Origin: Alphaproteobacteria bacterium
GTDB lineage: Bacteria > Pseudomonadota > Alphaproteobacteria > CALKHQ01
NCBI GenBank assembly: GCA_965227515.1
Contig: CBDDFZ010000001.1
Span: forward strand, 64,001-128,000
DNA: 64,000 nt
Direction: 5' to 3'
Within the stretch, counting starts at the first letter, position 1; the number at the start of each line of letters is the position of its first letter. A program made the position numbers and the translations under genes. Positions 21,034-61,349 of this stretch are shown in pieces. The notes under the pieces were generated by a model. It did no database searches. It was not told the origin of the DNA and saw only the letters and a program-made list of their open reading frames with translations.

Positions 21034-22170
<1,137 letters not shown>

Positions 22171-22279
22171 CACAAAAGACAGTCGCTCTCCCCCACCCGG
22201 CCACCCACGACAGTATCCTGAATGGGTGGCCGGGTGGGGGAGAGGGCTGGCGCAGACTTCAGCGTTCGCCGATGCAGCT

Positions 22280-58544: not shown

Positions 58545-59000
58545 ATCCGTATCGTCATCGCCGCGGCGGGGCGCCTGAAGGGCCACCCGCTGCAACCGGC
58601 GTTCGATGCCTATGCCACCCGGCTGACCTGGACGCTCGCTGTGCAGGAAGTGGATGTGCGCGGCAATCTGTCGGCGGGCGAGCGCGCCGCCAAGGAAGCG
58701 GCCGGCCTGCAGAAGGCAGTCGCACCGTGCCAGACCGTGGTGGCGCTGGACAGCCGGGGTGAGCGCGCCACCAGCACCGCGATCGCCAAGCGCCTCGCGG
58801 GCTGGGCCGAGGAGGCCCGCCTGCCGGTGGGCTTCCTGATCGGCGGCGCCGACGGACTGGCGCCCGGCCTTCTCGACACCGCGCATTGGCGGCTCAGCTT
58901 CGGCCGCCAGACCTGGCCGCACCTGCTGGCCCGGGTGATGCTGATCGAACAGCTCTACCGCGCCCAGCAGATCCTCGCCGGCCACCCGTATCATCATTGA
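58545..59000 (+). CDS. rlmH: 23S rRNA pseudouridine(1915) N3-methyltransferase RlmH (apparent ATC start)
   Basis: (I)RIVIAAAGRLK...FLIGGADG...TWPHLLARVMLIEQLYRA..ILAGHPYH. Confidence 0.9.
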   Translation: MRIVIAAAGRLKGHPLQPAFDAYATRLTWTLAVQEVDVRGNLSAGERAAKEAAGLQKAVAPCQTVVALDSRGERATSTAIAKRLAGWAEEARLPVGFLIGGADGLAPGLLDTAHWRLSFGRQTWPHLLARVMLIEQLYRAQQILAGHPYHH

Positions 59001-59013
59001 TGCCAATACAGTG

Positions 59014-59128
59014 CGTCATGGTCGGGCTTATCCCGACCATCCACGTCTTATTGGCCGCTTCGCGGCCAGCTCGTGGATGCCTCCTCGGATCAAGTCCGAG
59101 GACAGGCTTCACACGTGCGGGCATGACG
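59014..59128. repeat. CGTC-tagged REP doublet (family B) with a nested hairpin
   Basis: cgtcatggtcgggcttatcccgaccatccacg...cgtggatgcc[tcctcggatcaagtccgagga]...gcgggcatgacg. Confidence 0.85.
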
Positions 59129-59295
59129 ACGGAGATTGGGCAGCAGCCAGAAACGCTAACAACGACAACCTCATCAGGTACGTAGATGGGCTAACGGCCC
59201 TTGTTTGGTGGCGTGCATGAGTGGTCGTCCCTCAAGATGTCGGTGTCATACACGGAGTCGGGTTTGCCGCTCCAAGACATCGAGGAGAGACGACC

Positions 59296-60339
59296 ATGAA
59301 CTACTATGCCGGGATTGACGTTTCTTTGGAATGGTCATCGGTATGCGTTGTTGACGGCGCGGGCGGGATTGTCTGCGAGGCTCGTATTGCGAGCACGCCG
59401 GCGGGTTTGTTGTTGTGGTTTGGGTCTTTGGGGATTTCGGTTGAGCGGATTGGTCTTGAGGCGGGGCCGTTGTCGCAATGGCTTGTGCGGGAGTGCGCGC
59501 AGGGCGGTCTTTCGGTTGAGTTGCTGGAGACGCGTCATGTTGCGCGGGCCCTTTCGACGATGCCGGTGAAGTCGGACCGCTCGGACGCACGCGGGATTGC
59601 TCAGCTGATGCGTGTGGGCTGGTTTCGGCCGGTTCACTGCAAGTCTTTGGCGGCCCAGGAGATGCGGGCCCTTTTGAAGGGTCGCGACCAGCTCCGCGCG
59701 AAGCTGCACGATCTTGAGATGCACCTTCGTGGTCAGCTGCGGAACTTCGGGCTGAAGGTAGGGCACACCACCAGGCGCAGCTTTTCGACACGTATTTCGG
59801 AGCTTGTGGCGGGGCATCCGGTACTGGAGGCGGTGGCGGGGGCGCTGCTGTCGGCACGCGATGGCCTGTTGCTATCGTTCACGGCGCTGGACCGGCAGGT
59901 CCGGGCGGCGGCGCAGGCCGACGATCGCGCTCGCCTGCTGATGACGGTGCCGGGCGTGGGGAGCATTGTCGGACTGACCTACTTGTCGGGAGTGGACGAC
60001 CCCGGGCGGTTTGCCTCGTCGCGCCTGGTGGGTGCGCACTTCGGCCTGACGCCGACCAAGCGCCAGTCGGGCGAGAGCGAGGTGATGGGGCGGATATCGA
60101 AGGTAGGGGACGCCGATGTGCGCTCGGCCCTCTATGAGGCGGCACACGTGGTTCTGACCCGGCCGATCGAGGGCGGCTGGCTGAAGAGCTGGGCGATGAA
60201 GCTGGCCAGGCGTGCGGGCATGAGGAAGGCGAAGGTCGCGCTGGCGCGCCGGCTCGCCGTCATCATGCACCGGATGTGGGTTGACGGCACACCGTTCAAC
60301 CATGCCGGACCGGTGCGCCCGGCGATGGCGACAGCATGA
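59296..60339 (+). CDS. IS110 family DEDD recombinase/transposase (347 aa)
   Basis: AGIDVS, GLEAGP, KSDRSDA, TVPGVG, RQSG; GAGGAG SD. Confidence 0.95.
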   Translation: MNYYAGIDVSLEWSSVCVVDGAGGIVCEARIASTPAGLLLWFGSLGISVERIGLEAGPLSQWLVRECAQGGLSVELLETRHVARALSTMPVKSDRSDARGIAQLMRVGWFRPVHCKSLAAQEMRALLKGRDQLRAKLHDLEMHLRGQLRNFGLKVGHTTRRSFSTRISELVAGHPVLEAVAGALLSARDGLLLSFTALDRQVRAAAQADDRARLLMTVPGVGSIVGLTYLSGVDDPGRFASSRLVGAHFGLTPTKRQSGESEVMGRISKVGDADVRSALYEAAHVVLTRPIEGGWLKSWAMKLARRAGMRKAKVALARRLAVIMHRMWVDGTPFNHAGPVRPAMATA

Positions 60340-60404
60340 TGGCCGCGGCATAAGGAGAACCGACACACGAGCTTCGACGGGCACCGACACCGGCCCGTCG
60401 AGCG

Positions 60405-60567
60405 CCGTCCCGCGCCGGGACGATGGATCAGGTCAGGCCGCCATCCGGGATGTCGCCTCGCATGAGAGCACGCTTCCGTAGATTGGACCGACCGATCCTC
60501 GCATATCCATCTTGGCGGCGGCCCTGCGCCGACCCCGTACAGAAGCATGACCCAGGCGCCGGGACGA
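60405..60567 (+). ncRNA. Putative seek/bridge RNA of the second IS110 (ends approximate)
   Basis: Target guides CCATCCGGG (60441-49) and CGTAG (60477-81); donor guides CCATCTT (60507-13) and TACAGAAG (60538-45). Confidence 0.72.
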
Positions 60568-60603
60568 CGAAAAAGGGATTGACCAACAATGGCCCGTTAC
60601 AGA

Positions 60604-60694
60604 AGCCCGGATGGAGCGCAACGTAATCCGGGGACGACAAGACTGCGTCGTTACGAATTGCCCCGGATTTCACGTCGTATCATCCGGGCTACGT
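60604..60694. repeat. GTAG-tagged REP doublet (family E), left arm split by the IS
   Basis: [cgt]agcccggatggagcgcaacgtaatccgggg...ccccggattt...catccgggctacgt. Confidence 0.85.
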
Positions 60695-60730
60695 GACCGA
60701 GCCCAGCGGCAGAAGTCATCGACCCGTTGC

Positions 60731-60854
60731 CGTCATTGCGAGGAGCGCCGCCCATCTCTTGGAATGGGGGGCGCGACGCGGCAATCCAGAGCAACCTATG
60801 CGACGTCACGTCAATCGCCTGGATCGCGTCGTCGTTTCACTCCTCGCGATGACG
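60731..60854. repeat. CGTC-tagged REP doublet (family C)
   Basis: cgtcattgcgaggagcg...gcgacgcggcaatcca...ctggatcgcgtc...ctcgcgatgacg. Confidence 0.88.
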
Positions 60855-60905
60855 CCACACGTAGTGGGTGTGTCAGAGAATAGTGCCGGTGGTATGAGCC
60901 GGCGC

Positions 60906-61349
60906 CTACTCCGGGGCCAGGCGGCGCAGTATCTCGTAGAGACGGTCGAAGTCGGCATCGCCGATCTGCGCGCGGATGTCGGCCTCCACCTGGCGCTTGA
61001 CCCGTTCCGCATCCTGCTGCGCCTTCAGGCCCTTGTCGGTGTAGACGATGATCTTGGCGCGGCCGTCGTCAGGGTCGGGCCGGCGCGCCACAACGCCCTC
61101 GCGCTCCAGGTCGTCTACCATCTGCTGCACCGCCTGTTTGGTGAGCCCGATCCGCTGCACCAGCACCGACTGCTTGGTGCCGCGCGGGTCGATATACGGC
61201 AGGATCGAGCCACGCGCCTCCGCGTACCAGCCATGCCCCGCCGCGACCATGCCCTGCGCGAACGCCTGCTTCCAGCGCGCGGTCGCGTTCCACAGCCGCC
61301 AGCCGATGTGGTCGATGCGGGTACTGTTGAGGGTGTTTTCATGGTCCAT
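60906..61349 (-). CDS. MarR family regulator
   Basis: LTKQAVQQMVDDLE..G.V.RRPDPDDGRAK...TDKG. Confidence 0.92.
   Translation of the reverse strand: MDHENTLNSTRIDHIGWRLWNATARWKQAFAQGMVAAGHGWYAEARGSILPYIDPRGTKQSVLVQRIGLTKQAVQQMVDDLEREGVVARRPDPDDGRAKIIVYTDKGLKAQQDAERVKRQVEADIRAQIGDADFDRLYEILRRLAPE

Follow-up and report, generated by a model that had tools for sequence, protein, structure and literature searches.

What directs an insertion sequence (IS) of the IS110 family to the head of one class of repetitive extragenic palindrome (REP), and to particular REPs within that class? The question is raised by a 1,422-bp repeat unit at positions 59184-60605 of the window, by which we mean the whole 64,000-nucleotide stretch that was analyzed (positions 64,001 to 128,000 of contig CBDDFZ010000001.1, assembly GCA_965227515.1, from an alphaproteobacterium). 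A first-pass annotation, made from the letters alone, had proposed an IS1111-type element of the IS110 family inside a GTAG-tagged REP, with guides in its 3' non-coding end. Very probably, the element described here belongs to the IS1111 group of the IS110 family, is or until recently was active, and has a DEDD/serine transposase that takes its guide from a bridge (seek) RNA, about 155 nucleotides (nt) long and encoded in the right non-coding end.

Copies, ends and target of the element

A blastn search of the element's own genome (5.52 Mb, two contigs) returned 20 full-length copies, all of which span query positions 1 to 1422 exactly, at 89.8 to 100% identity. Both junctions carry AG in 20 of 20 copies, with a left flank ending in GT and a right flank reading CCyGGrTG. 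There are no terminal inverted repeats and no duplication beyond the short core in any of the 20, as in site-specific insertion. When the flanks are rejoined they give GTAG-CCCGGATGG..ATCCGGGG, a GTAG-tagged REP hairpin, and the genome holds 114 uninterrupted REP heads matching GTAGCCYGGRTG in addition to the 20 occupied ones. A short palindrome with the stem CCCGGAT/ATCCGGG, a GTAG tag at one end and many copies agree with the GTAG-tagged REP class as defined in PMC3733652, and REPs have long been known as targets of the IS110 family (PMC3733652, PMC11208160). Because all 20 copies agree and the 114 uninterrupted heads are at hand for comparison, the boundaries, the rebuilt target tacgt-AG-cccggatgg and the two-base AG core are exact, just as first proposed. 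Insertions of the element thus explain the interrupted REPs in the annotation of this genome. The parts of the element outside the guide region are as follows.

59182-59185, plus strand: GTAG tag at the head of the interrupted REP, made up of the left target GT and the core AG (59184-59185); ..GT-AG in 20/20 copies
59186-59295, plus strand: left non-coding end, 110 nt, starting ATGGGC, with the donor sequence that 60507-60513 matches in its first bases
59192-59209, plus strand: left sub-terminal inverted repeat, 18 nt, 78% complementary to 60582-60599
59296-60339, plus strand: transposase gene, 347 amino acids, with a DEDD RuvC-like domain, Transposase_20, the GLTPTKRQSG motif and Ser258
60582-60599, plus strand: right sub-terminal inverted repeat, pairing with 59192-59209
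60604-60605, plus strand: right copy of the AG core, 20/20 copies
60606-60633, plus strand: rest of the target REP hairpin (CCCGGAT .. ATCCGGG stem)

The element has a single long open reading frame, from an ATG at 59296 to a stop codon that ends at 60339. Its product matches PF01548 (DEDD_Tnp_IS110) at 47.9 bits and PF02371 (Transposase_20) at 73.2 bits, both over the cut-off, and the NCBIfam equivalog NF033542, "IS110 family RNA-guided transposase," at 239.4 bits (cut-off, 140). The serine motif of the IS110 family, G--P----SG, is present as GLTPTKRQSG; together with the length of 347 amino acids this agrees with the IS1111 pattern (330 to 350 amino acids, GL-P----S(t)G). In a search of Protein Data Bank sequences the only matches were IS621 (E = 2.6e-11) and ISCro4, both confined to the C-terminal domain. 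In that significant C-terminal match Ser258 is aligned with the serine of IS621 chain 8wt6_A; the catalytic serine of IS621 is S241 in the numbering of PMC11208158. The nearest protein outside the genome is a metagenome protein with 72% identity, and its metagenome relatives run to thousands, with 8000 proteins at E <= 1e-30. Among 100 related genomes, only 4 gave a match at E <= 1e-40, with a best identity of 49%, and there is therefore no close relative among those 100.

The ends are likewise of the IS1111 kind. The right non-coding end, downstream of the transposase gene, measures 266 nt against 110 nt upstream, and the TAACGG/CCGTTA of the sub-terminal repeats is conserved in homologues. 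The assignment to the IS110 family, IS1111 type, inside a GTAG REP is thus borne out by the Pfam and NCBIfam matches, the inverted repeats and the REP flanks, and, judged by sequence, the element shows every IS1111 trait that was compared.

One further copy is internally deleted, retaining element coordinates 1-711 and 1301-1422. This copy (G000:C1:998355-999181) has lost the 3' half of the transposase gene and the two target guides; the donor part and the two ends are still present. In the same genome, blastn at E <= 1e-10 returned no solo copy of the non-coding end. The genome also has two matches to PF01797 (Y1 transposase), at G000:C1:2017088-2017375 and C1:1603908-1604246 (35.7 and 23.9 bits), which are possible REP-associated tyrosine transposases for the GTAG REPs.

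Guide words and predicted RNA structure in the right non-coding end

Four short words in the right non-coding end match the two halves of the target and the two ends of the element, and they lie within a predicted RNA fold. The features of this region are the following.

60409-60562, plus strand: predicted bridge/seek RNA body, closed by helix P1 (60409-60419 with 60552-60562)
60422-60500, plus strand: target-binding stem-loop; its base is P2 (60422-60434 with 60489-60500), the two target guides lie in an internal loop, and a distal hairpin spans 60451-60472
60441-60449, plus strand: right-target guide CCATCCGGG, the complement of top-strand cccggatgg on the right side of the core; 7 copies have A in place of G60447
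60477-60481, plus strand: left-target guide CGTAG, left target plus core; the feature runs to 60483 with a handshake-like AT
60507-60513, plus strand: right-donor guide CCATCTT, the complement of a-AG-atgg, a sequence spanning the predicted circle junction
60515-60536, plus strand: distal hairpin P3 of the donor-binding part (60515-60522 with 60528-60536)
60538-60545, plus strand: left-donor guide TACAGAAG, right end plus core; the feature runs to 60546
60579-60584, plus strand: TTGACC, candidate -35 of a circle-junction promoter, 17 nt upstream of a hexamer made of the last four element bases and the first two of the left end

Each of the four words occurs once in 60340-60575. As a control for chance, this 236-nt stretch was shuffled 20,000 times with dinucleotides preserved: CCATCCGGG appeared in 112 shuffles, CCATCTT in 118, TACAGAAG in 16 and CGTAG in 1931, while all four words jointly appeared in none. 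CGTAG alone is therefore not significant; the set of four is. The target and donor guides that had been proposed for the 3' non-coding end are thus present at the positions listed, the target pair where it had first been placed and the donor pair at coordinates assigned here; the target guides covary with the flanks as described below. The guides also stand in the reversed order that had been claimed: the match complementary to the top strand (60441-60449) precedes the one complementary to the bottom strand (60477-60481). This is the published IS1111 rule (PMC11187229) and hence nothing special to this element. Bases beyond the 3' guides fit as well: the left end begins with AT, as found at 60482-60483 after CGTAG, and the right target begins with C, as found at 60546 after TACAGAAG. 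By the logic of IS621 (PMC11208158), these may be handshake-like extensions.

Helices P1, P2 and P3 were predicted by RNAalifold from 11 sequences. P1 has 10 pairs, 6 of them changed on both sides, with 95.4% of cells paired; P2 has 12 pairs, 6 changed on both sides, and P3 has 7 pairs, 5 changed on both sides. Overall, 91.6% of cells in P1 to P3 are paired, compared with 37.7 to 47.7% when the partners are slid by 1 to 3 columns, and 17 pairs carry double changes, compared with 1 to 4 in the slid controls. The ggatc-aggtc/gacc-gatcc stem noticed in the first reading is real and corresponds to P2. In the constrained fold the guides lie in unpaired parts, the target guides flanking the P2 distal hairpin and the donor guides flanking P3. 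On this evidence the non-coding end would encode a structured RNA with target and donor guides, as expected of the IS110 family. A small hairpin, GTCCC..GGGAC at 60406-60420, is present in 13 of 13 loci without covariation and competes with the 5' strand of P1; it may serve as a processing signal or represent an alternative fold.

The cycle that we propose starts from direct observations (copy number, exact ends and target, guide matches, covariation with targets, and helices) and takes over from the family, by analogy, that the guide is RNA, that a circle forms, that a promoter arises and what the chemistry would be. The target loop, through 60441-60449 inside P2, would pair with the top strand right of the core (CCCGGATGG). 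In the donor part, 60507-60513 would pair with the start of the left end and 60538-60545 with the last bases of the right end, both donor guides reaching the AG core. Recombination at the two-base core would then place a circular copy between GT-AG and CCCGGATG, the head of a GTAG-tagged REP, leaving no duplication beyond the core. In the circle, TTGACC (60579-60584) would meet the junction-spanning hexamer and form a promoter from which the transposase gene, and the RNA by read-through, would be transcribed. The TTGACC that had been suggested as a junction -35 is indeed found at 60579, and its spacing is kept in homologues: the distance from TTGAC to the right end is 27 nt at 11 of 13 loci, with 26 nt at one of the remaining two and 28 nt at the other, giving a spacer of 16 to 18 nt. 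TTGAC has no mirror in the left repeat. The junction promoter is a prediction from sequence, of a kind known as a family trait (PMC11187229, PMC12288879).

Guides and targets across homologues and within the genome

Homologues came from a one-genome-per-species scan, which yielded 29 loci with transposases 43 to 68% identical, mostly from alphaproteobacterial metagenome-assembled genomes and Hyphomicrobiales. Twenty of the 29, with the window copy, entered a search for element ends; the other 9 (truncated or short matches) were left out. A generic inverted-repeat search for these ends was noisy and was replaced by end motifs. Twelve of the 20 had a right end ..TTAsrGAAG, 10 of those also had a left end AGATGGsnTAA (11 of 21 loci scanned, counting the window copy), and 8 were dropped. 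Selection by end motifs biases the set toward elements with ends like this one.

Guide columns were compared in an alignment of the last 215 nt of the element. Whether homologues with other targets keep the same sequence at 60441-60449 and 60477-60481 had been named beforehand as the point to check. They do not; both columns change with the flanks. The column under 60441-60449 is the complement of each locus's own right flank in 10 of 12 homologues, and these loci cover six further target classes:

L049: guide column AATCCGCC, own right flank ggcggatt
L051 and L052: guide column CATGCGGG, own right flank cccgcatg
L055, L056, L058, L063 and L065: guide column ATGTCCGCT, own right flank AG-cggacat
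L066: guide column GTAGTGCT, own right flank AG-cactac
L061: guide column ATGTCTGCT, own right flank AG-cagacgt

The exact match anchored on the own right flank is 9 nt for the window copy and 8, 8, 8, 9, 10, 7, 9, 9, 6 and 5 nt in the 10 homologues, compared with 2 to 6 nt for flanks of other target classes. The column under 60477-60481 tracks the left flank, with CCCGAT-AG matching 8/8 in L057, CACTT-AG in L055 and L065, CCGT-AG in L051 and a 6/7 match in L058. The donor word tracks the element end, ACAGAAG occurring with the end TTACAGAAG and AGAGAAG with the end TTAGAGAAG, so that a C/G at the fifth base from the end changes jointly in left-donor guide and element end. A donor-word match of 7 to 8 nt is found in the same alignment column in 13 of 13 loci.

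Within the genome the right-target guide itself varies, A replacing G at 60447 in 7 copies to give CCATCCAGG. The REP heads differ as well, and the right-target 8-mers are distributed as follows.

CCCGGGTG: 60 free, 2 occupied
CCTGGGTG: 33 free, 8 occupied
CCCGGATG: 18 free, 9 occupied
CCTGGATG: 3 free, 1 occupied

All 7 A-allele copies lie in CCT targets (six in CCTGGGTG, one in the perfect match CCTGGATGG), an outcome with a chance of 4.8e-4. Of 13 G-allele copies, 9 lie in CCCGGATG, 2 in CCCGGGTG and 2 in CCTGGGTG, that is, 11 in CCC and 2 in CCT. Allele is associated with C or T at target position 3 (Fisher p = 4.6e-4), and the perfect-match class, which makes up 27 of 134 sites (20%), holds 9 of the 13 G copies (binomial p = 1.8e-4). 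Imperfect pairs at target positions 3 and 6 are without exception G.T or U.G wobbles; A.C never occurs among them. The two natural guide alleles with their 20 insertion sites thus show which mismatches the system tolerates.

The copy C1_927756 is a recombinant between the two types. Up to element coordinate 1072, 31 diagnostic sites carry the reference-type base (the last of them, at 1072, is A-type in most copies); from 1078 on, 29 sites are A-type. The copy is inserted in a CCT target. Its target follows its 3' end, which locates the choice of target in the final ~345 bp of the element, where the guide lies; coming from one recombinant, this is suggestive. A comparable "natural redirection" is known for a relative of ISEc21 (PMC11187229). 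If the reading is right, the alleles at 60447 split the REPs, with wobble tolerated and A.C avoided, and form a natural retargeting series.

Mosaic copies in general (C1_927756, C1_1656595 and C2_1239887 of G000) mix diagnostic sites of two subfamilies and therefore point to recombination or gene conversion between copies. The most diverged copy (89.8%; G000:C1:694774-696204) has as its right flank a partial REP head, CCTGGATGGAAC, followed 3 nt further on by a second, complete GTAG REP; its flank matches the A-allele guide 9/9.

These data bear on two other accounts of the guide matches. The matches might be captured REP leftovers or chance, with the target chosen by protein-DNA recognition of the REP hairpin. 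A REP is palindromic, so the complement of its head also resembles its own 3' arm, and CGTAG by itself is common in the shuffles. However, homologues with flanks unlike this REP (ggcggatt, cggacat, cactac) have, in the column under 60441-60449, the complement of their own flank, the one-base guide allele follows REP subtype within the genome, and CCATCCGGG is followed by ATG, not by the CTAC of a REP arm. The homologue columns and the allele data contradict the remnant explanation, which we consider very improbable. Alternatively, the guide could be DNA: the segments would work while single-stranded in the element end, in the manner of IS200/IS605. Covariation of sequence alone cannot tell DNA from RNA guides, and no RNA run is listed for the element. 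Yet guides of this family have been shown to be RNA that copurifies with the transposase and works in trans (PMC11187229, PMC11208160), the protein is a DEDD/serine enzyme and not an HUH enzyme, and the tolerance of G.T and U.G fits RNA-type pairing. A DNA guide thus seems the least credible of the alternatives, with hardly any likelihood left to it.

Against an RNA with target and donor guides stand several results, which we gather here. Among the homologues, neither target guide of L050 fits its flanks (3 nt on the right); this may be a mis-targeted or decayed copy, or one with rearranged flanks. In L057 a single internal mismatch and a single wobble interrupt the pairing of the right guide, leaving an exact match of 4 nt; beyond the core, the left-target guides match no more than 2 bases in L056 and 1 base in L063. 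An enrichment of C before GTAG was rejected as a sign of the left guide, C preceding 15 of 20 occupied and 81 of 114 free heads. The helix covariation is mostly a contrast between two clades and therefore represents few independent events. The unconstrained fold of 60400-60605, a G+C-rich sequence, is no better than that of shuffles (z = -1.24), and an Rfam 15 scan of 58800-61000 at E <= 1 returned no bridge-RNA family and one chance match to a long non-coding RNA (E = 0.58). A sigma-70 scan of 59100-60700 in the integrated state gave 0 promoter-like sites, and a look-up of RNA runs listed none that holds the element. Contigs of four runs over 58700-61100 contained no circle junction and no empty site; they show the element as a collapsed repeat, one contig of 1438 nt corresponding to 59182-60607. 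Finally, the donor-guide covariation amounts to about one or two independent changes, as the ends vary little. As a separate observation on L050 (CAWBBW010000032.1, 1380-2801), its donor guide and the base after it do fit.

The thinness of the donor covariation, which follows from donor ends that are nearly invariant here, leaves room for a third account, in which only the target stem-loop (~80 nt, 60422-60500) works as a guide, the donor words are unused, and the sub-terminal inverted repeats, with the target halves flanking the donor, serve to find the ends. In IS1111 elements the abundant transposase-bound RNA is a short form of 82 to 96 nt, for which PMC11187229 describes target matches alone; the same paper reports that ISEc21 needs target sequence around the donor for circle formation. 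On the other side, words of 7 to 8 nt identical to the own right end plus core recur in the same column in all 13 loci, the left-donor word switches from C to G together with the end, and the shuffles rarely produce TACAGAAG (16/20000) or CCATCTT (118/20000). Moreover, P1 and P3, which frame the donor part, carry double changes, and two-loop bridge RNAs are predicted in 93% of IS1111 elements (PMC11208160). We regard a target-only guide as improbable, though less so than the two preceding alternatives, and retain the RNA with both target and donor guides.

Strand convention and comparison with known systems

A second IS110-type element lies at 21062-22187 of the window (PF01548), with 4 copies seen in the genome. 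It is inserted between ggcaccggcc-CT on the left and CT-ctccccc on the right, in an 80-bp palindromic repeat (CTCTCCCCCACCCGGCCACCC..GGGTGGCCGGGTGGGGGAGAG) present in more than 30 copies. Exact-word searches, made without controls, found in its upstream end GGCCCT (21128, left target plus core), GGGAGAG (21150, right target plus core) and ACAGTCGCT (21191, left donor plus core); a TTGACA lies near its right end. Like the element at 59184-60605, it belongs to the IS110 family, sits in a palindromic host repeat and has a two-base core and guide words in a non-coding end. Unlike that element, its non-coding end is upstream, its core is CT relative to the transposase gene, and its words run in the IS110 order of bottom-strand match, top-strand match and donor match.

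The first-pass annotation had proposed that the AG-core recombinase is orthogonal to the CT-core one. The CT core of the 21-kb element stands. However, we infer that AG and CT are one core seen from opposite strands, so that the core gives no basis for orthogonality, and that part of the argument falls. Orthogonality of the two systems is nevertheless plausible from sequence, because the transposases have diverged too far for tblastn (lowest E, 0.88). When the two elements are read as RNA, the 5' guide ends in CU in both (8 of 13 loci in the family of the element studied here; AU in the window copy) and the 3' guide in AG. The "AG core" and "reversed order" would accordingly express how the transposase gene and RNA gene are oriented relative to the recombination sites, and not a different chemistry. 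The "order" and "core" labels of the IS110 and IS1111 groups then depend on strand convention, and, if this is true, the mechanics of IS621 would transfer directly to this IS1111-type guide RNA. That both things hold together, a strand-flipped RNA layout as in the IS110 type and two guide alleles splitting the REP population as a natural retargeting series, we judge slightly better than an even proposition.

Compared with described IS1111 elements, this one is close in its features. Siddiquee et al. (2024, PMC11187229) describe seekRNAs of this group as coming from the non-coding region downstream, with the top-strand-complementary match 5', the reverse of IS110, and Durrant et al. (2024, PMC11208160) predicted right-end bridge RNAs in 93% of IS1111 elements, show examples that target REPs, and give sub-terminal inverted repeats of 7 to 17 bp. 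ISPa11, ISEc11, ISKpn4 and ISPst6 (PMC11187229) share with it a transposase of 330 to 350 amino acids with GL-P----S(t)G, sub-terminal inverted repeats, a long non-coding region downstream and the same guide order. The reported IS1111 RNAs, 148 to 172 nt in the long form and 82 to 96 nt in the short (PMC13604230), are close to the P1 unit of about 155 nt and the P2 unit of about 80 nt here. ISPa11 also targets a GTAG-headed repeat (PMC13604230), but the insertion point differs, falling between GT-AG and CC here and at GG*CG within GTAGGGCG in ISPa11. The comparison with ISPa11 and the other named elements is one of features.

ISPpu10 and ISPpu9 of Pseudomonas putida (PMC12288879, PMC11208160) resemble the element in multicopy, REP-specific insertion and in a circle intermediate, which is predicted here; for ISPpu10 a hybrid junction promoter is described and a bridge RNA was predicted by Durrant et al. 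Unlike the present element, they belong to another host and another REP family, and ISPpu9 has a separable small-RNA module (ssr9) with solo copies, whereas the blastn search mentioned above found no solo non-coding end here.

IS621 (PMC11208160; Hiraizumi et al. 2024, PMC11208158) has a similar two-part RNA, with target and donor guides that reach a two-base core, handshake-type bases after each loop's 3' guide, and an aligned serine. Its target ATCAGGC-CT-AC reads GT-AG-GCCTGAT on the other strand, the same cut at the dinucleotide of a REP tag as here. In contrast to IS621, the RNA gene here is downstream of the transposase gene, the sub-terminal repeats are long, the sequences align in the C-terminal domain only, the element lies in the opposite direction in the REP relative to the transposase gene, it is the "right" guide that is long, and the core is AG. 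None of the Protein Data Bank sequences searched is closer than IS621 or ISCro4, and the natural allele data can therefore help the design of experiments. NCBIfam already names the protein an RNA-guided transposase, and the element is an ordinary, cleanly resolved IS1111 member; it adds to the group a well-defined case with ends, core, four guides and three helices mapped and 20 insertion sites readable. Beyond a known kind of element, the points added are the guide alleles within one genome and the strand-flip reading, which would place this IS1111 guide RNA and that of IS621 in one frame.

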